Shown here one piece after another: positions 17,708-39,699 of a stretch of DNA of 64,000 bases. Each line of letters starts with the position of its first letter. The first letter of the stretch is position 1. Both the position numbers and the translations under genes were made by a program. The stretch is from Naegleria gruberi (Eukaryota), in assembly GCA_000004985.1 (NCBI GenBank), contig GG738861.1, one strand, 5' to 3'. Under the pieces are notes generated by a model. The model saw only the letters and a list, made by a program, of their open reading frames with translations, did no database searches and was not told where the DNA came from.

Positions 17708-19778
17708 ATGAAGAAGGTTCGTTTATTTTCATAATCCACAACAATGATGTATTCTGGAAATTATAGTTTTTCAGCTCTCGTGCCTCCAAATCAGTAAATA
17801 TTGAAGATGTACCATTAAAGAATTGGACTAGCGATAACTTTAAACAATGGCTCACCGATGAAGGCTATGAAAAGAAGAATGTTGTTACACGTATGTTTTT
17901 ATCTATTTTACATTGTCTCTAAATCATAAATGGACACTTTGAATCATCATGTGGTGATGAATAACTTACCGATCATCAATTTGTGTGATGATGTTTGATG
18001 AATAATAACAACAACATAATGAAATACAAATGTCGTGATATTAACAATTAACAATTAACAACAACAACAACATTTGAAAAAACAATTTTATTATTATTAT
18101 TATATTATTTAATATATATTTACATACGCTTGGTTTATTATTATTATTATTATACAATTAAAACAGCACTGGCCAAACAACAATTTGATGGTGCTGCACT
18201 GATGCACATCAAAGTGGAAGATTTTACTGATAGTGGTATTCCTAAAGGAAGTGCACTCTCAATCTTTAACAAAATTGAAGAGTTAAAGATCAAACAAATT
18301 CAAACAGGACTTCTCCAAGATTCCGTTGTACAATTACCATCCATGGCTACCACATCAACAACTGGCCAACCACAAACAAATAGACCACTCCCAACAACTC
18401 CAACCACAAATGCTCCTTCTTCAAAACCACCATCCTATGATGATGATGAAGTTGGAGATTCTCCAGTCGATCCAAATAGCAAATATAATGAAATTCTTTC
18501 TAAACCAAATCAAAAGACAGATGAAGAAGAGGAAGATGATAAAGAACTTGCACGTGATTTGGAAGATCGTCCAACAACAGGTATCAATATGGGTACTACA
18601 TCAGGAGCAAGTAATTTTGGAAGTAAGAGTGCTTCAACTGGTATTCAATCATTTAATCAAGTACCTGAAGCACCATTGTGGAGTATTAACGAATTTTCTG
18701 CTAATCAAAAGACAAGTAAGTTTCAAAATTGAAATATTATTGGTTGACTAGTGACGTAGACTTTGAATTCTGTCTCACCAAGTTGGATAATCTGAAAGCA
18801 CAATATGATACTAACATTATTAGTACTATTTGTCAAAATTTGACCTTCCCAGAAAGATTCCGTTACAAGTATCTTAATCCACAACGTTTGCCAATCTATG
18901 CAAATCAAAGAGCAAAGGATCAACCATTTATGAAGGTTAAGATGGTTGTCACTGAAATGGGTGACGGTGCTGCTCACCGTTTCGTCAGAAGATTCGGCTC
19001 TTTATTCAAGCACTCAACAATTCAACAAATGGAATACGGAATGTTCCACACTGCTTTAATTATTGGACCTTGGTATTTGGAATGGGGTGATTCATCTATT
19101 GCCGTTGTTAGAAGTAAATCTAGTTCCAAGGCTGTTTTTGCAGTTGATGTTGCTAAGGTTATGGGATTGGAAAATGTTGCTAAATCTATTGATAAGATTG
19201 CTTCTATTTGTGCTCACTGGAATGCTCACAAGACTTATGATAACAAGGCCTGTAACTGTCAACACTTTGTCAGTGCTGTTCTTGAATATCTTGGCCTCAG
19301 AGCTGAATTTGAAAAGAATATTAAGGGTCCATTGCGTGTATACATGGATCGTCTGAAGAATGATGGTGTCTGTGATATGAGATATCATCTCGAACCAACT
19401 ATTCAAGATGCCATTATTAACAGCGATTGTAGTGAAGAATTGAAAAAGTTCGTGGCAGGTAAATCAGTTACTTTCAAGACTCACAAAATGTTGGACGAAT
19501 TTGTACATACTATTCAAAAGTGCAAACCACTCTACTTTGATGCCAATGGTAAATATGATTACATGTTACTCAAGTCATTCGATAGAGCTTTCTGGTTGCG
19601 TGCTCAATCATCGAAGGAGGCCGAAAATCCAGATGTTAAACCTTGGACTGCTGATAATGGTGATTGTTTGTGTCCTTTCAATGGAAGTGTTGATACAGAA
19701 ATTAATAACAGTATTGTTGGTAAGGATTACGAAGTCGAAGATGTAAGAATTCCACTCCCAGTCTTTAGAAAGAAATAA
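17708..19778 (+). CDS. SAM-domain + PPPDE/DeSI-like permuted papain-fold peptidase fusion protein. Four exons: 17708..17716, 17767..17890, 18167..18715, 18760..19778
   Basis: Exon 1 is ATGAAGAAG, then a GTTCGT donor. The SAM domain is split across exons 2 and 3 (WTSDNFKQWLTDEGYEKKNVVT|P|LAKQQFDGAALMHIKVEDFTDSGIPKGSALSIFNKIEELK). Intron 2 is 17891..18166 (GTATGT...AACAG). Intron 3 is 18716..18759 (GTAAGT...GTAG, 44 nt, phase 1). It joins in frame to the downstream ORF, which otherwise lacks an ATG. PPPDE signature: MFHTALIIGPWYLEWGDSSI ... YDNKACNCQHFVSAVLEYLGL (compare DeSI-1 GIWHTSIVV ... EHNCNTFSNEVAQFLTG). Confidence 0.7.
18044..18152. repeat. Microsatellite-rich intron segment: (AACAATT)2, (CAA)5, (TTA)5, (TTA)6
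   Basis: acaattaacaattaacaacaacaacaac at 18044-18072. (TTA)5 at 18088-18102. (TTA)6 at 18135-18152. All lie inside the 276-nt intron 17891..18166. The poly-Y start of track ORF 18130 is an artefact of TAT repeats. Confidence 0.85.
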
Positions 19779-22652: not shown

Positions 22653-25600
22653 ATGCCAGCAAGTTTTGCTCCATCGACTGCGAATCCTTTCGGGAGTGCT
22701 GCAAACTCATCGTATCTGTATGATGAATTTATCGAGACGGCCGATCTTACTCCACAAGAACAACATCATGAAAATTTTAAAACTTTTTTAAATGAGTTTC
22801 AATTGTTATCATCAAATATGCAAGATAGTTTTCATGATGATGTTGTTACACAATTGTTGGAGTCTCATGATCAATATCAAATTGGTTCGGCATCGGGTAT
22901 GCCTGCTGTGGGGAGTATTGGTATGTTTGTAATTTATTTGATGATGATTGTGGAAATTAACATTGTGGAAAATTAATAGGAAGTTCACAACCTTTGATTC
23001 GTTTCAGTTTTGCACCAAATGAAAATCTTAGATTTGATGAATTGTTACAAATTTCAACAGAAAATCAAATACTTCGTAAAGTTCTTTTAGTCTTTGCTCA
23101 CTTGTGTGAAGAAATGTCCTTCCTTTCTACATTTGCCAAACAACACTTCTTCCCTGCACTTTCACTTTTCGGAGTTACTGTTCAAGATCAAGATGAATTA
23201 GATGGTGAAAAACAATTACAATTTGGACGTGCCATTCCACTTCTTATGGATTTGTGGAATTTCTGTGCCAGATCTAACTATGTCGTCAAATCAACAATAC
23301 AACAACTGGCAAGCTTATTTTGTGATACTAATGTAAATGACAAAAACTTGGCCACTTACTTGGGAGGTCCTGGTGGTTCACAAAGTCAATATTCACATTT
23401 TGAAAGAGTATATGAAACATTGGGTGAATTATTAGGAGTTTTGATAACTTTGGATGAAATTATTCTTCAAAACAGTGCCTTCTCTCATCAGCTCACTCTT
23501 TACAAGAGAATGATCAGTAAGGGTATGTATCTAATTGTTGTTAATTAATTTGAGACTGATCATTATTTTCTCACATTATAGTTATGACTGAACCTGAGAG
23601 ATACGGTACCACAAAGCAAAATGTAGGAAAGGTTTATTATTTATTAGAAAAAGTTGAAGGAGATGTTCTTGATGATTCAATCTTCAAATCATGTATTAAC
23701 CAAGCTTTTGAAGATGTTGTAACATATACCCAATTAGTTCAATCTGAAAGTGGAGAAACACAAGAAAAATATGAATCACTTAATATTGCTATTCAAAAGA
23801 ATAAGATTCTTAAAATGGAATTTGAACATCATTTGAAATTACAATTCGAGGAAATTTTGAAAACTGTCCTTCCTCAACCAACAACAACATTTAATATTCA
23901 ATCTTCAGGAACTGCTTCTCTCTCAGGAAATAACGCTAATAACGCCACATTCTTGGAATCGATACTTGAAAAGAGATTTGATTTTGTTGGATTTTGTGGT
24001 CTTTACATTTTATACTTTAATTTGTGGATGGATAATCAAACCTTGAAAAAGCTCTTCAAGCAAGTCTGGGAATTCCACAAAAAATGTCCAATTATTCACT
24101 TGTATGGTAATACTGCTTGGTCTTCTGCTGAATTTTTCCTTGCCAAGGTACCAGATATGGTCAGACTTTCAGGTGTCAAGAATCCAAAGAAAGAAATTGA
24201 AGTCGACAGAAGTAAATATATGGACGGTTTAATTAAGAGCTTGTTCCCTAACATGGTCAATCAACTCAATTTGAAGATGAACATTTGGCAAAGTAGATTT
24301 GAGTCCAACTTTGATGTGTTGGCCTCTGCTGGTAGAGACGTACTTGCTGTTGAAGGCTCACTGTTATTGCAAGGTTTGGAACTTGCTCAACAAATCAATA
24401 CTCTTGTTAAGAATGGTATTTATTTGCACATTCTTGCTGCAAAGAGTTTGTCCATGTCACAAGTTTTACAATTATGTAGCATGGTAGAAATGGTAAAGAG
24501 TATTCAAAACAGTTTTTACAGAAAATCTCCTCAACTTGCCAAGCACATCAGTTACATTACTGAATTCTTAACTTTCAAGATTCAAAGATTCTTGGTTGTT
24601 CTCAGAAATAGACTTCAAACAAAGAAAAAGCAAAGTAATGCTGATGCTGATCAATTGAGTGCTGTACTCTTAGCTTTGCACTTGCTTGATTCTGGACACC
24701 CAAGTAAGAAGAGATTGGTCTTGCTTAGTCTCACATTATCTGTAGCTTTCTCACGTGCTTCTGGTTTGTTCAAGGAGTCTGAATATGAGGAAGTTAAGGT
24801 TTTGATGAAGAGATTGGAAGTTTTGGCTCATTTTGATGTCTTGTTGGGAGAATACTGCGACTGTTCTTACTTGTACTGGAATAGAAATGTAATCCCAGCC
24901 TTCTTTGATAAGGTTTATGAGAATCCATCTCGTGCTCCTCAACTTCACCTCATGATGTCTGCTCTGCAAGATCCTCTTTACAATGTACTCTTGTCAAGTA
25001 AGGATGGTATTACACCAGTTGCTGTTCACTTGGAAGATGGCGGCAAGGCACTTGTAGATGATTATGTTGATGAAATTATGAGCTATTTCAATGCTCATAT
25101 CGTTGATCCATTGTGTCAAGAAATTGAAACTGATCTCAGATTGCACATCCACAATACAAATGTGTTCAAGAAGAAGGCCATTGCCTCTCAAACAAAGGAC
25201 TTGTCTCCATTCTTCAAGACTTTGGGTCCAATCAGATTCCATAACAAGCTCATTGAAATTAAGAGACTTGTTGAAAAATACTTGGACAAGACATTCTACG
25301 ATTTTACTATTATTGCTCTCCACGATTGGAAGACATATGAAGAAATGCGTAATTTGGCCTTTGAAAAGTACGGACTCAACTTGATTAATGTTTATTTGCC
25401 AGGTCAAACTTTGGAACAAGGTCTTGATGTTCTTGAAATTACCAGAAATATTCATGTTTTTGTTTCAAAATTCTCCTACAATTTGAATCAGAACATGTTC
25501 ATTGAACAATGTGCCAAATCCGAAGCCAAGAGTCTCAATGTTTTGCACATTAAACATATTGCCAACTCGATCAGAACTCACGGTACTGGTATTATGAATA

Positions 25601-30339: not shown

Positions 30340-32019
30340 TTATTCATCCAAATCACTAGAATTTCCAGATTCAACACGAGCATCATCTCCATTGCCAGAT
30401 TCAACCATTGAAACTTGACTTAAATCTTCAATACCTGATGTATTCAAAGAGTCTTTTTGAGCTGCTTCAACTTCTTTGGTGGATCTTTCAGGTGAAATCT
30501 CTACTTTTTGTTTCTTTTGTGATTGATTTGCGATGGAAACTGATCTTTCTGAAACTTTAGAACTTTCTGGTGCTTGCTTTCTCTTCAAATCAACCTTCTC
30601 CTTAGATTGAGATTTTGGTGATGCAGAGGAAACCTGTTGTTGTTGTTTAACTTTAGCCTTCTGTGGAGTCTGTAAGGTCATATTAGTATCCAAAGTTTGT
30701 AGAGAAGATCCATCTTGTTGAGAAATATTAGAACCGTTAGATGCAGGTGTTATTCCCTTTTGTTCATTTCCATTATTGGTTGTTGTTACAGTCTTAATAA
30801 TTGGTAAACCACAGATATGTCTCAAACAATTTCTAATATCATTATAAAATACTTCTGCAAACTTTCTTACACCTGTCATGTATTTAGCACATCTCAATAA
30901 ATCGTCATAATTTGAAAGGTTAAATGTTTCAAAGGATTGCATTATGTACACTGGTTCAACACTTTCAGATTTCTTTGAAACTTCTTCACCATAATTTTCA
31001 ACAAGTGTATAAAATCTTCTCATTACATAACAAGTTACTAGAGGACCAACACATGTAATACCTGTAACAAATCTCTTTCTTGGTTTGGCACCACTTTGTT
31101 GGAAAAAGTTATATTGAGCTTCAAGGAAAGCTTTCAACATTATTGCCAATTCATTTTCTGCTTGAAATTGATTACCATTAATATCGTTACATTCTCTAGA
31201 ACAGAAGAATGGAAGGAATGTACCATTAAGGAAATGTTGTTCAATTTGAAGTGGATTAGGTTGTTGCATTGGTTTTGGACTTGTAATTTGAGAAACTCTT
31301 CTTGTCAATTCACGAATTTCCTTATTTCTTTGATGATTAAGTCCAATGAAGAAAGATCCATCAAATTTTGTCTTTTCCATTTGATTTGTTAATTGAAAAT
31401 CTCTATTCTCATCAAATAAATGTTCAAAGTCACGTGTAATAAATCTGTAAAGATTTGAAAAGATGGAACCTCTCCAGAAACTATCATGTTTACCACTGTA
31501 TTTTAACATTGTTTGAGGTAATTTAAACATTTGACCCCATAAATCAGTCAAGTATGAAAATTCATTCTTACTAACACCTAACTCTTCACTTGGTTTATCA
31601 AGTACTGAAATACTCTTACTAACTTTGATGAAGGAAGTAACTTCTTTTCTAGCATGTTGATGAGAAATCAAAGCAATGGATGAACGTGGAAGAACAAAAT
31701 TTTGCATTAAAAGCCTATTCTTACAATCTTGATATTCTTGATCTAAAAAGCATGTCATTCCATCCACAGAAGCAACTAAATTATCAGAAGAAGAGGTGTC
31801 ATCGGATGATGGCAAGGACAATAATATTGGCATAGAAGCAAAGTGTCCAATATGAATATGTTGACTTCCTTCCACTACACTCGATCTATAGAGGCTTGGA
31901 TCTAGATAGCTGTTATTGTTTGAAGAGCCTAGCAGCACACTATTAGTAGAAGATCCATCCGAGTTGTGCATCATATTGTTGGTAGGAATAAAAATTGTAG
32001 AGTCGAATTGGTTCATCAT
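30340..32019 (-). CDS. Hypothetical protein (559 aa) with an S/N-rich N-terminus and a K/Q/S-rich C-terminal tail
   Basis: Uninterrupted ORF. No recognisable domain. Confidence 0.5.
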   Translation of the reverse strand: MMNQFDSTIFIPTNNMMHNSDGSSTNSVLLGSSNNNSYLDPSLYRSSVVEGSQHIHIGHFASMPILLSLPSSDDTSSSDNLVASVDGMTCFLDQEYQDCKNRLLMQNFVLPRSSIALISHQHARKEVTSFIKVSKSISVLDKPSEELGVSKNEFSYLTDLWGQMFKLPQTMLKYSGKHDSFWRGSIFSNLYRFITRDFEHLFDENRDFQLTNQMEKTKFDGSFFIGLNHQRNKEIRELTRRVSQITSPKPMQQPNPLQIEQHFLNGTFLPFFCSRECNDINGNQFQAENELAIMLKAFLEAQYNFFQQSGAKPRKRFVTGITCVGPLVTCYVMRRFYTLVENYGEEVSKKSESVEPVYIMQSFETFNLSNYDDLLRCAKYMTGVRKFAEVFYNDIRNCLRHICGLPIIKTVTTTNNGNEQKGITPASNGSNISQQDGSSLQTLDTNMTLQTPQKAKVKQQQQVSSASPKSQSKEKVDLKRKQAPESSKVSERSVSIANQSQKKQKVEISPERSTKEVEAAQKDSLNTSGIEDLSQVSMVESGNGDDARVESGNSSDLDE

Positions 32020-32239
32020 CTTGTTGTATGTTATTCAAAATATCGGAGTAAATTACAAAGCCTTGTGATGAAAAGAGCCTATTTAATAAGTAGTTGGTTA
32101 ATCCAAGAGCACCTTGTCCAGTTTTTTTTTGTTGTTATTTTTAAGTTGGTGAACATACAGGCTTGTTTCCACTCACCACTGGAATCCAGAGAAGGCTGGA
32201 AATATTGAAAATACGCGGTAAAAAATAAAACAAACTGAT

Positions 32240-33448
32240 TTATAAAGTTTTTATTGGTGCAAAACGATAGTGAGCAGGTAATTTCGATCTATTGATAAAG
32301 TCCACTGAACGATCATATTGTGGTAACAACTTGCAAACTTGCATGAGGATTTTACCTCTTGAATTTCTGGATTCGGCCATTGAAAATGCTGATTTGATAC
32401 TCTCCAAAGACATTTCATTGAATGCTTCGGCAATTCGTGTTTGTATCTTTCCAGTGGTGTGATATTCTGCCAATTGTTCGAGTGTATCCGATTGATTTTT
32501 AGTATTGATTGTGAAAAAGACATATTCAGGACCTAGACCTAAAGTTGAAATGACCCTTCTCCATGAATTGTAAGTTCCAATAGATATCATTTTGAGAAGT
32601 GAAATTGGTTCATTAGCAAGACCAACTTGTATATATTTTGATTGTCTAGATCTGAGGAATTTCCAAGCTCTCTTCTTCAAATCCTTATCTCCAATAAGGT
32701 CGATAATAACATCCACATCAGGTGTATTATATTCAAAATCTTTTACAGTTTCTCCTTCTTTAATTTCATTCTTATCCTCCACTTTGGCATCTCCATAAAT
32801 TGAAAATGTTGAGAATGGTTTCAAATCCTTCACAATTTCCATACCAGCATCAGTTGTGCATCCTGCATAAACTTCTGCTTCTAAAACATTTCTAGCGTAT
32901 TGAACACAATAAGATCCAACATTTCCAGAAGCTCCCAAAATTAAAACTCTTGACCCCTTCTTTACCTTTCCAATATTCACTAAACTTTGATGAGCAGTCA
33001 ATCCTACCATCGGAATTGTACTTGCTTCAGCGTGTGAAAGTTCCTTTGGTTTCAATGCAATAGATTCCTCATGAAAAATATTATATTCAGCCAAACATCC
33101 TCCTTCTCCATTAATTCCAAATACTTCATCTCCAACTTTAAATCTCGATGCTGATGATCCTGTCTGTACCACAATACCACTCATATCCGATGAAGGTATC
33201 AATGGAAATGATGGTTTTCCGAGGAGAATATTTTGAAAGAAACCACTCCTAATTTTATAATCAAAAGGATTAATACTCGAATAGACAATCTTAACTAGAA
33301 CACTCCTCTCCAATTCCTTTGATGATTTTTTACTCGACTCGAAGGAAGGAACAGGAGTAAATTGATCAGAATATTGCAACACGTCCAAGCCTCCATATTT
33401 TTGATAGTAAATGGCTCTCATGGTTGGAGGAAGTGATTGTGATGACAT
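32240..33448 (-). CDS. Medium-chain dehydrogenase/reductase (zinc-type ADH superfamily), RTN4IP1/quinone-oxidoreductase-like
   Basis: N-terminus MRAIYYQKYGGLDVLQY...VLVKIVYSSINPFDYKIRSGF ~ human RTN4IP1 [21 protein letters not shown]. Nucleotide-binding motif RVLILGASGNVGSYCVQYA (GxxGxxG). Confidence 0.85.
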   Translation of the reverse strand: MSSQSLPPTMRAIYYQKYGGLDVLQYSDQFTPVPSFESSKKSSKELERSVLVKIVYSSINPFDYKIRSGFFQNILLGKPSFPLIPSSDMSGIVVQTGSSASRFKVGDEVFGINGEGGCLAEYNIFHEESIALKPKELSHAEASTIPMVGLTAHQSLVNIGKVKKGSRVLILGASGNVGSYCVQYARNVLEAEVYAGCTTDAGMEIVKDLKPFSTFSIYGDAKVEDKNEIKEGETVKDFEYNTPDVDVIIDLIGDKDLKKRAWKFLRSRQSKYIQVGLANEPISLLKMISIGTYNSWRRVISTLGLGPEYVFFTINTKNQSDTLEQLAEYHTTGKIQTRIAEAFNEMSLESIKSAFSMAESRNSRGKILMQVCKLLPQYDRSVDFINRSKLPAHYRFAPIKTL

Positions 33449-34159
33449 TTTTTTATATTTTTAATGGAATTTCTAATCTTCAACAAGAATATTTCAACTT
33501 CTTGCACTTTCGATAGATTGTAATGTACATCTTTCTAGTTTGAATCTTAAACTCATAGTTATCATCAAGAATAGTACTTTTGGGGATATGATAGAGTGGT
33601 GTGTAGTGGAGAGTGTGAGATCCATCCAGATCATGCGAAAATCAAAATCGTAGTAGATTCATTGATGATCTTCATCTCTCAGAATACTCAAAATTATTCA
33701 AATTTCATATTTCTCAAAGAAGATAATGCTTTGCAAGATATCCTAAATGAAAAGTTTATTTGAAACTATCCCAAGCAGCCTTCTTCTTGCAATTCTCTTT
33801 ACATCTTTCACCTTAGCTCTCTTGACTTCAAAAATCTTTCCTCCAACTTCAATTTCTTAATCATTGTGCAATAACACATTTATCAACACATTGATTTTGA
33901 AAATTGTGAATTTAGAATGAACAGTATTAAGAGAATTCTTGGATTGAAAACATTTCAATCCTACTTGAAACACTCTAAATTACCTCAATTAACCACCATC
34001 GTTACCACTCAATGTAGTCCATATAAGAACACAAGTGCCATCAAAATAATTATCAATCAAATCAAAATTTATATGAATCAATTCATTAATCATGAAAACA
34101 TCATCAAAATCCAAAATAAATAACCAAAGTTCACTTTAAATTTCCAATCTTCATACGAA

Positions 34160-35037
34160 ATGGTGAACTTTTCAAAGCAAAAAAACATGTCAGCAACTGA
34201 GATGCAACCAAAATCTTATCCCATCTTTGCATTCCTTCGTGACTTTTCCATCACAGGAGGAGTGTATTTTGCCTCGTGTACAATAACAAATCCCATTAGA
34301 GGGGCTGTATTCCACTTGGGAACACAAGACATTTTTTCTGATAAACCAAAATATACAGGAATAATCAATTATCTTGTAAATACTGTTAAGAATAATGGGA
34401 TTAGAGGCTTATGGGCTTTCAATGTTGGAATTTATTTGAGAGAAGTGTCAGGTGTCGCCTTTAACTTTGCTTTTCATGCATCATTCAAGAAAATTCTTCC
34501 ACAATTTTCTCCAGTCAATAATCAATTGGAATACATGTTGATGCAATTCATATCTGGTGGACTAGCAGTTCTTACCACAAGAAGTTTCCAACATCCTCTC
34601 GATTTTTTATCTACTTATGAATATCGTGATCTAAAACCAGGATTTAGAGCTTGCTTTAATGGACTTGGTGATGTAGTATGATTTATGGTGGTTTATATTT
34701 TGGATTATTTGATATTTGGAAAGAAATGAGAAGGAATCAACATTCCTTTGTGGAAAAACTTGGTGTGGCTCATGGAATTTCCCTTATTTCTACAATAGCA
34801 ATTTATCCAGTTGGAATGGCTAAAAGAGAAGCATTTGAAAAAGCACACAACCTTGTATCTCAAAGGAAATTCTATAATGGTACCTTAAAAGAATTATTTA
34901 ACATTGGAAAAGAACAAGGAGTGAAAGGTTTGTTTAGAGGGCTCTCTGGTGGATACCCTATTCTTTCAAGTATTAAACCAGCTTGTACTTTGGTGCTATT
35001 TGATGAAATACGTGGATGGTTATTGAAACAAGAATAG
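34160..35037 (+). pseudogene. Divergent ADP/ATP-carrier-like mitochondrial carrier gene, interrupted by a -1 frame break at about 34672-34681 (pseudogene or sequence indel)
   Basis: ORF 34160..34681 is AAC-like: FLRDFSITGG, YTGIINYLVNTVKNNGIRGLWAFNVGIYLREVSGVAFNFAFHASFKK. It ends at ...FNGLGDVV*. The homology continues in the -1 frame from ATG at 34678: IYGGLYFGLFD ... YNGTLKELFNIGKEQGVKGLFRGLSGGYPIL. The two frames overlap and no GT..AG intron can bridge them. Carrier signature motifs are degenerate (NPIRGA instead of Px[DE]xx[KR]). Confidence 0.6.
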
Positions 35038-35048
35038 AAAATGTATTT

Positions 35049-36172
35049 TTATGGAGATAGTTCATTAATTGTTGTGATGATTTGAATGTCAGTCAGTAAT
35101 TTCCTCAGATAAATATTATACATAGTTGTTATCATTCTATTGGTGATTGGAAGTAAACATGGAGAAATAAAAGGAGTGGTGACATTATCAAAGATTAGTT
35201 CAGTAACTGATCTTACTTCTTCTTCTGAAGTTACATTAACAATATGATAAGAATCGAGATGAAATGAAACTCTTTCCAAATATTCTGTTATGATGGAATT
35301 AATAACTATTCTTTCATTGTAATCATTTGAAATTATTTCCAATTCTGGCCTCACAACTGAATTAATCTTCCTACTATATTCCATTCTTTTCTGCAATTTC
35401 TTTACCAGAATATCTGGCTTTGTAAAGAGAATTACTTTACGAGCATCAGAAAGAAGCCCATTTCCAAACAATTTTCCTATCATTTCCAAAGAATCATTCA
35501 TCACTTCTACATTATTATACTCCACTAAATTAAATTCTGAAAGGGAGACTGTGTAGATCAAAATTTTGATATTTTCAATACAGTAGATCCACTTTCTTCT
35601 TTCAGATCTTCTTCCAAATGCATCAAGAAATTCAACATTTGAATTATTCCAAATAGTTCTATAAGAAGTTATTCCACTGCTTCTCAATTTAATTAATGAG
35701 AAAGGATCAAATATTTTCTTTCTTTCAATTCTTGTGACAAACTCTTCCACATTTTCATATAACATTGCATTCTTAGCCCAGTTTGATTCATAATACTCTT
35801 TAAAGAATGGACAATTCCACAATTTTACCAATAGCCACATGCTGAATCATCTTGTATCCTTTGGATAAAACTTTCGTCAGTAGTTGATTCGAATATATTT
35901 CCCATATCTTCATCAAGATGTTCAACTATTTTTCTTAACTGCTGCTTTGCCTCCTCCTTATCCATCGAGTAATAAATTCGTTCAATAATCCAAAAACTAG
36001 CAAGTTGTAAATTATATTCGAATTTGTCATCATCAAAGTTTCTAATAGTGCATCTTTGAACGGATCGAAAAAAAGTTGATTTACCAGAATGAGATGATCC
36101 CAGTATTAGAACTTTTTGGAGGTTTTTGTCTTCTTTGTTAGCACGCTTGGATTTCGATTTGGATAAACCCAT
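35049..36172 (-). pseudogene. Heterotrimeric G-protein alpha-subunit-like gene with a -1 frame break near 35826-35846 and degenerate GTPase motifs
   Basis: N-terminal ORF (36172..35825): MGLSKSKSK... (N-myristoylation-type MGxxxS) and P-loop KVLILGSSHSGKST. C-terminal ORF (35840..35049): switch II / Q-loop region DAFGRRSERRKWIYCIE versus canonical DVGGQRSERKKWIHCFE (catalytic Gln replaced by Arg, first Gly by Phe). The NKxD motif appears as LFTKPDIL. No GT..AG intron reconciles the two frames. Confidence 0.65.
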
Positions 36173-36269
36173 TTTTTTGAATTAAAACTATTTAAATATT
36201 AAATTGTTAAATACATAATATTAAATATTTCCATTAATTAATAGAAAATGCTATCATCACATTCAAATA

Positions 36270-36584
36270 TTGATGATGAGGAAATTTCTACTGGTACTGG
36301 AGAGAATGATACATGATTGTGAGCAAATGCTTTCTTTTTTACAAAAGATTTCTCTCGCTCTTAATGAGATCCACAAAGATGATTACGTTCATGGAGATAT
36401 TAAGCCAGAACACATCTGGATCTCTCCAGAGGGCACTAGAGTTGGCTCAAACTCAGCTGATATCTACTCATTAGGACTTTCCATCCTCCAAATATTGTAT
36501 GGAAGCAGTGATCCCAATTACATTCGAAACAACAAAGAAAAGCTTTTGGAAAATTTAACTTGTAATGAGCTTAGGTATTCTTGA
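36270..36584 (+). pseudogene. Orphan protein-kinase C-lobe fragment (kinase gene remnant)
   Basis: 104-aa ORF with a catalytic-loop-like HGDIKPEHIW and subdomain IX-like SADIYSLGLSILQIL. It has no N-lobe (no GxGxxG, VAIK or alphaC) and no DFG. No upstream coding space remains, because the G-alpha-like gene abuts it on the other strand. Confidence 0.5.
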
Positions 36585-36729
36585 AAAGATGTTGAAAGAC
36601 AATCCCTTAGAAAGATTTCAAAACGCTTCTCAATTAGTTTACTAGTCTCAAATCACTAAAGATCAATAATTTCTCTTTTAATTGTTGTGAATTCTTTTAT
36701 GTTTATTAAGCAATTGAGGTGAACATGAA

Positions 36730-36802
36730 GCCGACATAGCTCAGTTGGGAGAGCGTAAGACTGAAGATCTTAAGGTCCCTGGTTCGATCCCTGGTGTCGG
36801 CA
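36730..36802 (+). tRNA. tRNA-Phe (anticodon GAA), 73 nt, no encoded CCA
   Basis: GCCGACATAGCTCAGTTGGGAGAGCGTAAGACTGAAGATCTTAAGGTCCCTGGTTCGATCCCTGGTGTCGGCA. Acceptor stem 7/7. D arm GCTC/GAGC. Anticodon stem TAAGA/TCTTA with loop CTGAAGA. T arm CCTGG-TTCGATC-CCTGG has a single U51-U63 mismatch. Near-identical to metazoan tRNA-Phe. Followed by a T-run. Confidence 0.95.
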
Positions 36803-36804
36803 AA

Positions 36805-36808
36805 TTTT
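36805..36808 (+). terminator. RNA polymerase III oligo-T terminator for tRNA-Phe
   Basis: TTTT immediately 3' of the tRNA discriminator base (caaaTTTTaac). Confidence 0.4.
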
Positions 36809-37560
36809 AACTTTGAATCATTACTGCATTTTCAATATTTATTTAATCTTAGAATTTTGGTCTATTCGAAAGCAACAGAGTGAGTTTTTGTGTTGGATCT
36901 GTGTTGTGTTCAAGGAATTCTTTCGAATAACATAAACTAAACGAATACCACTTACCAAGAAGAGAACTATTTCAGTAGCAATAACGGAAAGGTATAATAC
37001 AAAGAGTGAAATATAAATTGGAGTGACGGCAAATCTAATTTCTTGAAATTTGAGCAACAAGTTGACCGTACCATTAGATACAGAAACAGTAACCATTACA
37101 ATCCAAAAATAACAGTTGATGTTCTTTTACCCATAACTGTTTGTAACTATTTCAATCCTAAATATTCGAAAGTAAAGAAAAACTTTCAAAATGGTCAAAA
37201 TGAAAGACATGATGAAACAACTGAAAGGAATCATTTGAAGGAAGGAATGACATTCTCCAAGAATGCAGTTGCCCACAGTAATTTCCATCACTGTCTCCTT
37301 ATCAATAGTTTATATTCACATGAAGTCCAGTCGAATTATAAATTAATCTAAAGAGCAAGGCAATAGCATGGTGAATACGAAACTGAGCATGACCCATGCA
37401 TTCTTTGATGAGTTTAGTTTGAAAATAAGAATCAAATAGATCCAATCATACACAAGAACAGGAAAATGAATTAAAAAAAAATTAATTTATCATTTTATTT
37501 TTAGAAAATTTAAAACCAAAAAGTTTTTGCCCCTTAAAAATAAAATTTAAATTAAAAATA

Positions 37561-37920
37561 ATGCCATCAAACTTCTCATCCGAACAATACAAACAACTTA
37601 ACAAACAAGTTACACCACCAGCTGCAACATTTGAAAGATTGCAACAAAAAACTCCATCTTCTAAAGCAGCTCCAGTCCTCAACAATCTTCCAACTACTCC
37701 ATCAAAGGCAACACAAAGCAAGACTGTGAACTCTTTATTAACCGGAATTAAAAACCTTCCATTGGAAGCTGCTCAATTTAAAAAGAAGAAGGGTGCCGGT
37801 CTTGTCGCTCTCGCTTTAGGTTCATTGATTGTTGGTTCTTATTCCTACACTATCAAGAGTATGAAACAAGAAAACTTTGCCGATGTTGTCATTCCAGATA
37901 CTTTGAAGCTCAAAGAATAA
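37561..37920 (+). CDS. Small (119 aa) tail-anchored-type membrane protein, function unknown
   Basis: ATG at 37561. Basic patch KKKKGAGLVALALGSLIVGSYSY forms a C-terminal TM helix. Stop TAA at 37918-37920. An A/T-rich leader lies upstream. Confidence 0.4.
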   Translation: MPSNFSSEQYKQLNKQVTPPAATFERLQQKTPSSKAAPVLNNLPTTPSKATQSKTVNSLLTGIKNLPLEAAQFKKKKGAGLVALALGSLIVGSYSYTIKSMKQENFADVVIPDTLKLKE

Positions 37921-38103
37921 TTTAAAATTGTGGATACTTTTAAATCGGATCATATTGTCACTTGATGGTGGATACTCACATTTAGTAATAATGGATATCT
38001 AGCATCGGCTCATGCCACTTATTTAATAATAAAAGAAATTTGGAAATAATAATATTCTGTATTATTTAACATTAAACGCATTGAGAATATTAAATAGGCG
38101 AAA

Positions 38104-39699
38104 TTAATAAGAAGAAAGTCGTGATGATACCGAACCAACATGCTCCACTAGATCGGGTATCACCAAGTATGAATCGAGATCCTTGTGTCGTTTCTTGTAA
38201 ACGTAATTGTAAATTATTCTATCATTTGGATATTCTGATGAGGCTTGTGGTTGCCATTCTCTCAAATAATCAAGAAATGGATTTATGAGTTCAGGTTTGT
38301 TTGGATAAAGCATGGCTAGTAGTACATTAAATATTAATAACTAGAAAATATTAATACAAAACTTACCAACCGCACTACCATAATGAGGGAAATCTCTTTG
38401 CAAATGATATTTTCTTCCAGTTCCTTCATATTCATTGGAGAAGAATTTAGTGAGCTTGATGAATTTGGATTCCAAATAGTGGAATCGAACCAAGAGTAAG
38501 AATCCGAGTGTAATGGCAAACAGTAACACAAATATCCAATAGAATTTAAATCTATTGAGAATAATCTTGTCATTTCCACTATTGAATTGATTTGCTTGAA
38601 TTGTAAAGTAACCAATGGTCATGATGAAGGAAAAGAATAAAGCTACAAAAGAAATCAAGTGCAATCTCTTCTCATTGTAATCATTGTAGGAATGAGAAAA
38701 ATACAATTTCATCCACATAAATGATCTATTTTTGAATAGTCTCTCTCTGTCTTCATTCCTATTTGATGGGTCGTAGAAATCGTGATTCATATTTTTCAAT
38801 AGCTCTCTAATACTATCTAGCCATCCTTTTGGTACTACTGCATCATCCTCCAAAATGATAATATAATCCATATGAGGATAATGTTTCGTACAATATTCAA
38901 TTGCTGTTATATAGTCCAAAGCTTGTTTTTGATGATAGCTCATACTATAAACTTGATCAAAATTACTAGTGAAGAAATGTCTATCTCCCTTGATATCATC
39001 CCTGTGAAAAATGTTAAAAATTTGCTTTTCCTTAATAGCGTTCAAATGTCCAGTTGGGAACGAACTTGCATCAAATATATTGATTGCAATATTGGAGGTG
39101 GGTATCAAATCATTCATGGAGGTATTGGCCAAAATTGAATGAATCAAAACTTCTTGGTATTGTCTGTTTCTGGTAATCGAAGGTATCGAGATGCAAAATT
39201 TAGAATGCTCAACTGGTCCACTACTTGGTGTCTTGGCCTGTTCAAATGATTTCCTCAATAGAGAAACCAATTCTGTAGGCATATTATTAATATAATTCCG
39301 AGCTTTATCAATTCTATCCAATTCATTCCTTTGTATTTCCTCACCCGTAGTGTCGTGATGTTTTGCAAACATTGAAGATGGCAAAACCTTCCGCATCATT
39401 GAAAAGGCATATTGTGCTCTATCCTCCCGTGTGATACTAATCATTACAAATAAAAACAATATTGATAAGAGTATAATTTTGCATGAGGTTATTAAATTTG
39501 ATTTGATCGTCTCCGAGAATGAATGTTCTTCCAATAGAAAATTAGAAATCGGAGATGTTGTTGTTGTGGAAGATTTACTCGGTAATGTAGGTGAATCATC
39601 AGTGATGATATCCGATTCCTTGTGAGTGGTTACATTGGGTTGTTCTACTTCTATTCCTTCACCAAGTGGAGAGGATGCTGCATTGGTACGTAAAGACAT
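38104..39699 (-). CDS. Type-II-like membrane protein with a glycosyltransferase-like EDD motif. Two exons: complement(38367..39699, 38104..38315); the 51-nt intron is 38316..38366
   Basis: N-terminal TM helix LITSCKIILLSILFLFVMISI. Motif MDYIIILEDDAVVPKGWLDSI is a DxD-like signature as in GT13-type GlcNAc transferases. Second TM cluster near the C-terminus. GTAAGT donor after ...HYGSAV and CTAG acceptor; the phase-1 splice joins in frame to MLYPNKPELINPFLDYL.... Confidence 0.5.

Follow-up and report, generated by a model that had tools for sequence, protein, structure and literature searches.

Unprocessed pseudogenes, whether unitary or duplicated, are genes that decay in place within their promoter-side context, with frames that stay open around a small indel, and they can further be recognized by an intact allele in a close relative and by a dN/dS raised towards 1. 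Here we describe a patch of about 2.5-2.6 kb in Naegleria gruberi NEG-M, at positions 34160-36802 including a tRNA-Phe gene, in which three adjacent loci (transporter-like, G-protein-like and kinase-like) are damaged. The patch shares the first two properties with unprocessed pseudogenes, and its carrier-like gene shares the last two as well. It departs from them in that the decay is very young, the carrier-like and G-alpha-like genes having accumulated no stop codons yet, and in that the G-alpha mutation is putative. The families with which the three loci have to be compared are the mitochondrial ADP/ATP carriers, the heterotrimeric G-alpha subunits and the protein kinase domain.

The window, that is, the whole stretch of DNA analysed, comprises 64,000 nucleotides of contig GG738861.1 (assembly GCA_000004985.1). 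A sequence-only reading of it had proposed that three consecutive loci are disrupted here, and all three were indeed found disrupted where it placed them, the frame of the carrier being compared with that of an intact orthologue from a wild relative (P0261, contig L002), the frame of the G-alpha-like gene with the paralogues P0002 and P0003, and that of the kinase with the Pkinase profile. The features of the patch and its margins are as follows.

33980-34181, no strand: 202-nt segment of the reference, upstream of the carrier-like gene and overlapping its start, which the wild relative lacks
34160-34681, plus strand: 5' part of the carrier-like gene (helices H1-H3 and the start of H4), with a premature TGA at 34679-34681
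34671-34674, plus strand: junction of a net 10-nt deletion with an adjacent substitution, reading GGTGAGGTTGCACCAATTAGTATG in the relative and GGTGATGTAGTATG in the reference
34678-35037, plus strand: 3' part of the carrier-like gene in the -1 frame (rest of H4, H5 and H6), unreachable by translation from the start codon
35027-35028, no strand: indel junction, lying between two convergent stop codons, at which the relative carries 180 nt more than the reference
35049-35840, minus strand: 3' part of the G-alpha-like gene (most of the helical domain, the switch regions, G3-G5 and the C-terminal tail), annotated as NAEGRDRAFT_66226, 263 aa
35828-35846, minus strand: frame-change stretch of the G-alpha-like gene, repaired by one base between 35836 and 35835
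35825-36172, minus strand: 5' part of the G-alpha-like gene (MGLSKS N-terminus, P-loop GSSHSGKST), ending in a TAA at 35827-35825, with no gene model
36270-36584, plus strand: kinase relic, frame A, covering the hinge through the catalytic loop (HGDIKPEH), and then subdomain IX (DIYSLG)
36559-36645, plus strand: kinase relic, frame B (+1), reading GILEKMLKDNPLERFQNASQLVY up to a stop codon and containing subdomain XI
36730-36802, plus strand: tRNA-Phe gene (anticodon GAA), intact and with a T run after it (ARAGORN; Rfam RF00005, 67.9 bits against a threshold of 29)

The patch probably consists of accessory genes, lineage-restricted and dispensable, in which a real decay has reached different stages. 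This decay is not uniform: the kinase is old, and the carrier-like and G-alpha-like genes kept open, codon-biased frames through a long divergence and were hit only recently. Codon usage is coding-like in the proposed frames of all the pieces, being weakest in the kinase, and neither of the flanking genes, one ADH-like and one COA3-like, is damaged. That three broken genes among about 33 in the window should lie side by side has a chance of about 0.006 (31/5456), by our own post hoc arithmetic. As read from the sequence, translation would yield stumps of 173 aa for the carrier and 115 aa for the G-alpha, or, for the latter, the annotated 263-aa piece if it started at an internal Met, without the P-loop; none of these is expected to function. 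The patch represents ordinary recent gene decay, with no new mechanism or feature type.

The carrier-like gene and its intact relative

In the reference, the two parts of the carrier-like gene match successive portions of an ADP/ATP-carrier profile in different frames, frame 0 at positions 6-160 (E 6.9e-23) and the -1 frame at positions 183-300 (E 1.8e-13). The homology continuing across a -1 frame break, as claimed for this gene and for the G-alpha-like gene, is real in both. The 5' part is annotated as NAEGRDRAFT_66225 (164 aa), and the JGI model starts at the ATG at 34187. A wild relative carries an uninterrupted orthologue of 292 aa, P0261, on the metagenome contig L002 (ENA), which is 97.3% identical in DNA to the reference over 855 aligned columns (about 97-98%). 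The sole frame-changing difference between the two is the net 10-nt gap at 34671-34674. The sequence-only reading had assumed a 1-nt deletion and had suggested looking at orthologous loci in related strains; for the carrier this comparison finds the relative intact and 10 nt longer, and the 1-nt deletion is not borne out. Over carrier-profile positions 167-194 the alignment of P0261 is gapless and that of the reference needs a 3-residue gap, which argues that the 10-nt deletion is derived in the reference. The alignment of the two sequences indicates that the carrier was broken by a true deletion and not by a 1-nt base-calling slip, and it is unlikely that an artefact in the metagenome contig would restore both a 292-codon frame and the spacing of the family. 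That the carrier frame of the relative runs on uninterrupted, 10 nt longer, marks the break as a mutation rather than a recoding signal. A single larger loss of some 67 nt (22 codons and one base), considered for the profile gap at 161-182, was rejected, since the relative is itself about 20 residues short and the reference lacks just 10 nt.

Both ends of the gene also differ between the strains. The in-frame upstream ATG at 34160 comes from the 202-nt segment, and the frame of the relative begins with the ATG at 34187. Where the 3' ends of the two genes meet, the 180-nt indel gives the relative a different carrier C-terminus. The 11-nt spacing of the convergent stop codons does not establish a deletion of these 180 nt in the reference, because another convergent pair in the window lies 8 nt apart. 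Contig L002 ends 26 nt into the G-alpha-like gene.

The best sequence matches of the carrier-like gene are mitochondrial ADP/ATP carriers (SLC25A4-6, AAC), with 26-30% identity over about 90% of its length. The [FY][DE]xx[KR] motif of these carriers is retained on H4 and H6 (FDIWK, FDEIR), whereas PX[DE]XX[KR] on H1, H3 and H5 is degenerate (PIRGAV, PLDFLS, PVGMAK) and the subfamily signature is absent: RRRMMM, or RRR(L/M)QM, has become AKREAFE, and Arg no longer occupies the YRG and LRT positions. SLC25 carriers have three tandem repeats of about 100 residues in one polypeptide, each comprising two transmembrane helices and a matrix helix. Here Pfam Mito_carr is matched by repeats 1 and 3, and repeat 2 is about 20 residues short of this pattern, its matrix helix h34 (about 20 residues) being natively missing even in the intact relative. 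An AlphaFold model of P0261 (pLDDT 84.4, pTM 0.81) has six long helices, H3 and H4 being joined by a loop of just 9 residues with no matrix helix in repeat 2, and its best match in the PDB by Foldseek is the ADP/ATP carrier 6gci_A (TM 0.79; 1okc, TM 0.55). The intact protein of the relative is predicted by this model to adopt the six-helix carrier fold, and the 10-nt deletion would lie inside the predicted H4. The gene would thus appear to have been long maintained as a much altered six-helix protein derived from an ADP/ATP carrier, without most of the salt-bridge and substrate residues, until the deletion in helix 4 presumably inactivated it recently in the NEG-M lineage, with translation predicted to stop after 173 codons; the deletion itself is the step that the relative documents. 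The search for orthologues yielded N. gruberi-like sequences only.

The carrier differs from that of the relative by 9 non-synonymous and 3 synonymous substitutions (omega 0.84), against a pooled omega of 0.17 for five intact control genes compared with the same relative. It has diverged at non-synonymous sites about four times as much as the controls (binomial P for the dN excess 0.001), with the same dS, and Fisher's test on the N:S counts gives P 0.03, a contrast that is based on only 12 carrier substitutions and in which the excess non-synonymous changes may belong to either lineage. For the carrier, to which this comparison is confined, dN/dS therefore nears 1 relative to the neighbouring genes. 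One control, gene 48208, has an omega of 1.3 on 6 substitutions. Across 6.8 kb of adjacent aligned DNA, 14 of 16 indels are intergenic, and the two coding ones are 3 nt long and in frame; about 5.6 kb of neighbouring reference coding sequence holds no frame error when compared with the relative.

The kinase relic and the G-alpha-like gene

Among the conserved elements of the protein kinase domain (PF00069), HxDxKPE, the DxxSLG of subdomain IX and the ...DP..R of subdomain XI are recognizable in the relic, whereas the N-lobe with GxGxxG, the VAIK Lys and the helix-C Glu is absent, as are DFG and APE, and what is left is split over two frames. Frame A matches the Pfam Pkinase profile at positions 92-134 (E 4.5e-6), and positions 176-229 are weakly present in the relic. 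About 40 profile positions are skipped internally, and the DFG-to-APE segment is missing; at 28.6 bits against a PF00069 threshold of 31.7, the relic falls short of a whole domain. A +1 frame change inside 36559-36584, overlooked in the sequence-only reading, leads into GILEKMLKDNPLERF and on to a terminal VY and a stop codon at 36645. The kinase thus has three independent lesions, and no gene model covers it. It had been described as a C-lobe-only fragment with no room for upstream exons, which is correct: only about 76-100 nt separate it from the start codon of the G-alpha-like gene on the other strand, too short a gap for an N-lobe. An inversion that would have moved the N-lobe to the left flank was also considered and rejected, as no frame of 33449-34160 contains a kinase motif. 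A word-indexed homologue search returned nothing for the relic, and an exhaustive HMMER search returned distant kinases only, with 30-40% identity over 40-60 residues; the best phmmer E-value among 1.8 billion proteins is 1.5e-12. The kinase sequence is a relic and not a pseudokinase gene, and it would represent the old end of the decay, with the N-lobe and activation segment gone and a frameshift near the 3' end.

The G-alpha-like gene is otherwise whole on both sides of its break. Against a profile of intact paralogues its N part matches to about position 107 and its C part from 109 to 368 (E 8e-88), so that the two frames abut at 107/109. As encoded, the two parts score 31.3 bits (below the threshold of 48.8) and 106.3 bits against PF00503 in different frames, and the full-length domain is not found in any one frame; after conceptual repair it forms a single stretch covering positions 11-332 of 333, at 138 bits. 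The repair changes tgt g^g cta into C-E-L, which matches the CEILV.LW of the paralogues without a gap, the codon GAG of a conserved Glu being read here as G-G. The nearest intact relative is NAEGRDRAFT_59438 of N. gruberi (P0002), at 46% identity. Heterotrimeric G-alpha subunits have an MGxxxS N-terminus, a GxxxxGKS P-loop and DxxG, all present in this copy. The G3 motif DVGGQ, in contrast, reads DAFGR, in which the catalytic Gln is replaced by Arg (the subfamily has Arg or Gln there); the switch I motif RxxTxGI reads KLRSSGI; G4, NKxD, reads TKPD (TKPD or VKPD in the subfamily); and G5, TCAxDT, reads VNVTSE (VNxTSE in the subfamily). The subfamily also adds a conserved tail of about 45 aa (FISPC..NRMI..LTDIQIIT) past the normal C-terminus. 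Several of these deviations are found in the intact paralogues P0002 to P0004 too, and those are subfamily traits and not signs of decay. Six peptide patterns run against JGI metagenomes gave no confirmed locus for an orthologue, and cluster look-ups gave no environmental members for the G-alpha N part, the kinase ORF or a neighbouring 119-aa gene.

The G-alpha-like gene has no stop in 378 codons, which bounds the time since inactivation at less than 0.044 neutral substitutions per site (95% bound), and the repaired protein is 29% identical to the outgroup P0004, as compared with 29-31% for intact paralogues, indicating no long-term acceleration. On a tentative and less likely view, the draft Sanger consensus has one base wrong at the G-alpha break and nowhere else in the patch, the gene would be intact and functional in NEG-M, and only the carrier and the kinase would have decayed. 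The gapless alignment and conserved Glu that one added base restores, the full-length Pfam G-alpha that results, the unaccelerated rate, the normal codon usage and the absence of any other lesion would all fit such an error. Nevertheless, the break site is not a homopolymer, the 5.6 kb of neighbouring coding sequence is free of frame errors, and the adjoining carrier, with which the gene shares the 180-nt indel at the 3' ends, is broken by a real deletion. Judged from the sequence, the break is most likely a very young null mutation in a relaxed region, so that a small Naegleria-specific subfamily would have a member here whose sole defect is the base lost from a conserved Glu codon.

Clustering, alternatives and annotation

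The suggestion of a gene graveyard or of relaxed selection is supported for two of the three loci, namely the carrier, with its deletion, its omega of 0.84 against 0.17 and the 180-nt and 202-nt indels at its ends, and the kinase with its three lesions. The clustering may have its cause in local dispensability together with local structural instability, of which the several between-strain indels would be a sign, and not in the tRNA gene.

The consequence is chiefly one for annotation. NAEGRDRAFT_66225, which UniRef names 'ADP/ATP translocase', and NAEGRDRAFT_66226 are fragments of frameshifted genes, and neither should be counted as a functional carrier or G-alpha in inventories of Naegleria transport and signalling. 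Searches of the literature and by locus tag found nothing usable on them. That the reference strain has a null allele where a wild relative keeps the gene intact also adds, in a small way, to the record of gene loss, or of presence/absence variation that is still segregating, among the many accessory genes of Naegleria.

Naegleria has been described as mainly a heterozygous diploid of varying ploidy (PMC9928731), and the assembly might then have happened to take up null alleles from one haplotype, the other haplotype of the heterozygous strain having an intact allele like that of the wild relative. An intact allele diverged by about 1.5% does exist in nature, but a carrier with a raised dN is more in keeping with complete relaxation than with a recessive null that has been sheltered only recently. 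We consider this doubtful; it would in any case refine the account of dispensable genes in decay and not truly compete with it.

Errors concentrate in low-coverage stretches of draft assemblies, and three frame changes do fall within 1.9 kb (at about 34672, 35836 and 36570). It is nevertheless very improbable that the whole patch is a poor piece of assembly, with every frame break an artefact and both the carrier and the G-alpha-like gene intact. The carrier difference consists of 10 nt and a substitution and not of a 1-nt slip, the loss of the whole N-lobe and of some 40 profile positions from the kinase is beyond any base-calling error, the window contains no Ns, and the carrier has a raised dN. 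The idea of two independent 1-nt assembly errors is thus refuted for the carrier; the G-alpha break alone could be such an error, one missing base explaining everything there.

The tRNA-Phe gene had been pointed to as a hotspot for insertions, and its proximity (85 nt from the end of the kinase relic) and the difference in locus structure between strains are what could be said for an insertion or rearrangement hotspot that broke its neighbours. We regard this as even less credible, and find no support for it: the segment 32000-39000 contains no repeats, target-site duplications or transposon-like ORFs, no transposon remnant or Rfam match accompanies the intact tRNA, the lesions are deletions and not insertions, and the documented indels lie 1.7-2.7 kb away from the tRNA.

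That both -1 breaks are decoded in Naegleria, by programmed -1 frameshifting, by editing or transcript correction or by an unconventional intron, to give full-length carrier-like and G-alpha-like proteins has next to no likelihood, for although both breaks have the same -1 phase and fully open frames downstream, the overlaps at 34672-34681 and 35846-35825 hold no X XXY YYZ slippery heptamer, the carrier of the relative is one continuous frame 10 nt longer, and splicing would cost conserved residues. No transposon, repeat or plausible intron was found behind the breaks. In the strict sense, the claim that no GT..AG intron can bridge them fails, since frame-restoring GT..AG pairs exist formally (43 for the G-alpha-like gene, 67 for the carrier and 15 for the kinase); in substance it stands, as each pair removes conserved aligned residues and none has the GTAAGT or GTATGT donor of the real introns of the window. 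A tiny 13-nt intron at 36562 (GTAATG..TTAG) was rejected once those had been found. The ORFs elsewhere in the window can fairly be called clean, the other frame changes being ordinary introns of 44-60 nt (18716-18759, 22921-22979 and 23524-23581).

Disrupted loci beside tRNA-Phe

The three disrupted loci described in the sequence-only reading are real and were confirmed far beyond chance by Pfam, custom profiles and codon usage. The features concerned are:

34160-35037 (+), ADP/ATP-carrier-like gene (carrier)
36172-35049 (-), G-alpha-like gene (G-alpha)
36270-36584 (+), kinase relic, frame A, with the hinge, HGDIKPEH and DIYSLG
36559 to stop 36643-36645 (+), kinase relic, open frame B (+1), GILEKMLKDNPLERF
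36730-36802, tRNA-Phe (GAA), intact (Rfam, 67.9 bits)

The N-terminal part of the carrier (34160-34678) and its C-terminal part (34678-35034, -1 frame) match Pfam Mito_carr with E-values of 1.7e-8 and 2.6e-5, and on a profile built on 87 full-length ADP/ATP carriers they fall on positions 6-160 (frame 0) and 183-300 (-1 frame). The N-terminal part of G-alpha (36172-35828) covers positions 11-88 of its Pfam profile and the C-terminal part (35840-35052) positions 116-332 (E 2.4e-30); on a profile built on its three closest intact relatives, the upstream frame runs up to position 107 and the downstream frame starts from 109. For the third locus, the Pfam match is to Pkinase over positions 92-134. 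Codon usage in the proposed frames is coding-like for all pieces (0.20-0.25 bits per codon, with the kinase piece lower at 0.09); intact genes score 0.33 +/- 0.12, and off-frame reading gives -0.59.

The carrier N-terminal ORF is 100% identical to NAEGRDRAFT_66225 (XP_002678546) and the G-alpha C-terminal ORF to NAEGRDRAFT_66226 (XP_002678655), both entered as 'predicted protein [Naegleria gruberi]' on one 507,294-bp scaffold. Neighbouring ORFs are consecutive NEG-M models (NAEGRDRAFT_48207, the phosphate carrier, 48208, 66224 and 66227), and the window as a whole is gene-dense, ~34% G+C, with zero Ns.

An intact carrier allele in a wild relative

Clustered at 90% identity with the annotated 164-aa carrier fragment is a second protein, P0261, uninterrupted at 292 aa, from a wild Naegleria close to NEG-M (ENA metagenome assembly ERZ929261, run ERR1078381, contig k127_475569, locus L002). 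Its gene at L002 536-1414 corresponds to window 34187-35037. Window 34182-35026 is 97.3% identical to L002. The sequence at the break is GGTGAGGTTGCACCAATTAGTATG in L002 and GGTGATGTAGTATG in the window, which at 34671-34674 lacks a net 10 nt and differs by a substitution; since 10 is 3n+1, the frame moves by -1, just as seen, and meets the TGA at 34679. Base-calling slips do not typically make differences of 10 nt, and thus the 1-nt assembly deletion that had been offered for the carrier gives way to a net loss of 10 nt against an intact allele. P0261 (GLGEVAPISMIYGG) is gapless on carrier-profile positions 167-194 (ynGlGvsvvgiipyrG), where the reference has a 3-residue gap; judged by this spacing, the deleted state of the reference is the derived one. 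A single ~67-nt deletion, drawn from a 22-position profile gap, was rejected because the intact relative is also short there; the ~20-residue shortfall in repeat 2 is therefore native. The segment GFRACFNGLG can be placed on either the '...krqFNGLvD' or the '...glYNGLGV' motif of normal carriers.

AlphaFold models P0261 with confidence (pLDDT 84.4, pTM 0.81) as six long helices, H3 (113-143) and H4 (153-184) being joined by a loop of only 9 residues; in the PDB the model comes closest to the ADP/ATP carrier 6gci_A (TM 0.79). Unlike ADP/ATP carriers, P0261 natively has no matrix helix between H3 and H4, and most of their salt-bridge and nucleotide-binding residues are missing, and yet as modelled the intact protein looks foldable as a six-helix carrier. 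Given that the 10-nt deletion takes out residues inside H4, the reference product would end after H3. Best identity to any other carrier is only 26-30%, and there are zero in-frame stops over 292 codons, in which ~5% of point changes would make one, so that neutral drift is limited to at most ~0.066 substitutions per site. Taken together, the low identity and the stop-free frame indicate a maintained, highly derived gene until recently.

Selection was measured by Nei-Gojobori between window and relative. As controls we used five intact window genes (ADH-like gene 66224, 48208, 48207, the phosphate carrier and 79315). Their orthologues come from contigs of that metagenome (a single run, in its ENA and Logan assemblies), in regions that share 98.5-98.8% identity with the window.

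Substitutions between window and relative
Five controls pooled: non-synonymous 21.5; synonymous 33.5; pN 0.0033; pS 0.0195; omega 0.17
Carrier: non-synonymous 9; synonymous 3; pN 0.014; pS 0.017; omega 0.84

The non-synonymous excess of the carrier has a binomial P of 0.001 (Fisher's test on N:S, P 0.03). In 6.8 kb of adjacent aligned DNA, from contigs spanning four of the five controls, 14 of 16 indels are intergenic, and the two in coding sequence are both 3 nt and in frame. One control, NAEGRDRAFT_48208 (30340-32019 (-)), differs by 5 non-synonymous substitutions and 1 synonymous one (omega 1.3), as well as by two indels of 3 nt that keep the frame; the gene may evolve fast, or the ratio may be small-number noise.

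Larger differences surround the carrier. A 180-nt indel at 35027/35028 (L002 1386-1565) lies exactly between the convergent carrier and G-alpha stops, which in the reference are just 11 nt apart, and alters the carrier end (...LLTTCTCTSST in the relative versus ...LLKQE in the reference). A 202-nt segment (33980-34181) is present in the reference only, as compared with L002 and L003, a further metagenome locus; the ADH-carrier spacer (33466-33572) is non-collinear, with unique sequence on each side (L003 1-226, L002 1-81). The patch is probably also a short stretch that is structurally unstable between strains.

The G-alpha frameshift and the kinase relic

The closest relatives of G-alpha are the intact N. 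gruberi paralogue NAEGRDRAFT_59438 (P0002; 376 aa, 46% identity), P0003, an environmental orthologue of P0002, and P0004, a more distant Logan protein. The frame change is confined between 35846 (after the downstream-frame TGA) and 35828 (before the upstream-frame TAA). With one base inserted between 35836 and 35835 (tgt-gg-cta to C-E-L), the gene reads DDSACELLVKLW versus the paralogues' RDDCCEILVTLW, gapless and with the conserved Glu back, and forms a single Pfam G-alpha stretch over 11-332 of 333 (138 bits). It retains the MGLSKS N-terminus, the P-loop, DxxG and the conserved tail of its subfamily. Identity to the outgroup P0004 is 29%, equal to that of the intact paralogues (29-31%), which argues against long-term acceleration, and the stop-free frame, capping neutral drift at <0.044 substitutions per site, makes the lesion young.

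Three unusual motifs, with TKPD for NKxD, VNVTSE for TCAxDT and Arg where the catalytic Gln would be, recur for the most part in the intact paralogues and are thus subfamily traits, not decay. Compared with usual G-alpha, this subfamily has (T/V)KPD, VNxTSE and Arg or Gln at these three places, and beyond the usual receptor-contacting C-terminus it carries a conserved ~45-residue extension (FISPC..NRMI..LTDIQIIT). The subfamily is small (35049-36172 (-), P0002, P0003, P0004 and P0262) and was seen solely in N. gruberi-like sequences.

The sole lesion of G-alpha is one missing base: a very recent mutation, or else an error in the consensus. L002 stops 26 nt into the gene, its last nine codons and stop identical to the reference, and searches of the protein collection and of JGI metagenomes gave no further close relative. 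Given the proven lesion in the adjacent carrier, we infer that the frameshift is probably a real mutation.

The kinase relic matches Pkinase over positions 92-134, with a weak match over 176-229. It lacks the N-lobe (1-91) and ~40 positions from DFG to APE, and the joined frames score 28.6 bits versus a Pfam threshold of 31.7. With the G-alpha start codon ~76-100 nt upstream on the other strand, the description of a C-lobe-only fragment without upstream room holds. An N-lobe motif was looked for on the far flank and was absent. The locus has no gene model, and homology searches gave no close homologue. With its three independent lesions it is unambiguously a relic, and an old one, for which sequencing error cannot account.

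Proposed causes and extent of the gene loss

On the best reading, the reference strain is undergoing ordinary gene loss, recent and still in progress, among its lineage-restricted accessory genes. The carrier has its 10-nt deletion and raised dN, and the kinase relic has multiple lesions. The genes of the patch are presumably dispensable, as no N. fowleri or N. lovaniensis orthologue was among the G-alpha and carrier search matches, and the adjacency of three broken genes suggests local relaxation rather than chance. Naegleria has been described as mainly heterozygous diploid (PMC9928731), and NEG-M could be heterozygous for these nulls. The pseudogenes are new and previously unflagged, but of well-known kinds; the practical upshot is two misleading gene models to correct.

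Other causes do not explain the patch. According to the sequence-only reading, no GT..AG intron could bridge the breaks; formal frame-restoring pairs do exist, but each would cut out conserved residues, and all of them miss the donor consensus of the local introns, leaving no plausible intron. In the carrier an intron is excluded outright by the unbroken ORF of the relative. Real introns in the window measure 44-60 nt, begin with GTAAGT or GTATGT and end in YAG, and those of one gene served as a yardstick for this genome:

22655-26670 (+), WASH complex subunit 4 (SWIP) gene, two canonical introns (22921-22979, 23524-23581)

The second is flanked by positions 31-196 and 197-572 of the Pfam profile for this subunit. 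Recoding was rejected, the slippery heptamer being absent from the frame overlaps of both carrier and G-alpha. Mobile elements, or the tRNA as the insertion hotspot once proposed, fail because 32000-39000 holds no repeats, notable inverted repeats or other RNA families. The proposed graveyard under relaxed selection stands for the carrier and the kinase relic but does not extend further, since the genes on both sides are intact, namely the conserved ADH-like gene (omega 0.14) to the left and, to the right:

37561-37920 (+), COA3-like gene NAEGRDRAFT_66227, 119 aa, Pfam Coa3_cc (E 9.5e-8), modelled only as 'predicted protein'

Between the tRNA and this gene, ~750 nt (36803-37560 (-)) have no gene model and contain three short minus-strand ORFs with hydrophobic stretches, ambiguous coding scores and no family match, together with a candidate intron (GTAAGT...CACAG) near 36955-36900 (-). 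The stretch may be a further relic, or else a small membrane-protein gene with an intron.

Run ERR1078381 (ERZ929261 and Logan, loci L001-L005) contains two Naegleria lineages in one public metagenome, one ~98.5% identical to NEG-M in DNA and one more distant, whose G-alpha, P0003, shares 77% protein identity with P0002. NEG-M gene models can be checked against wild alleles from this run.
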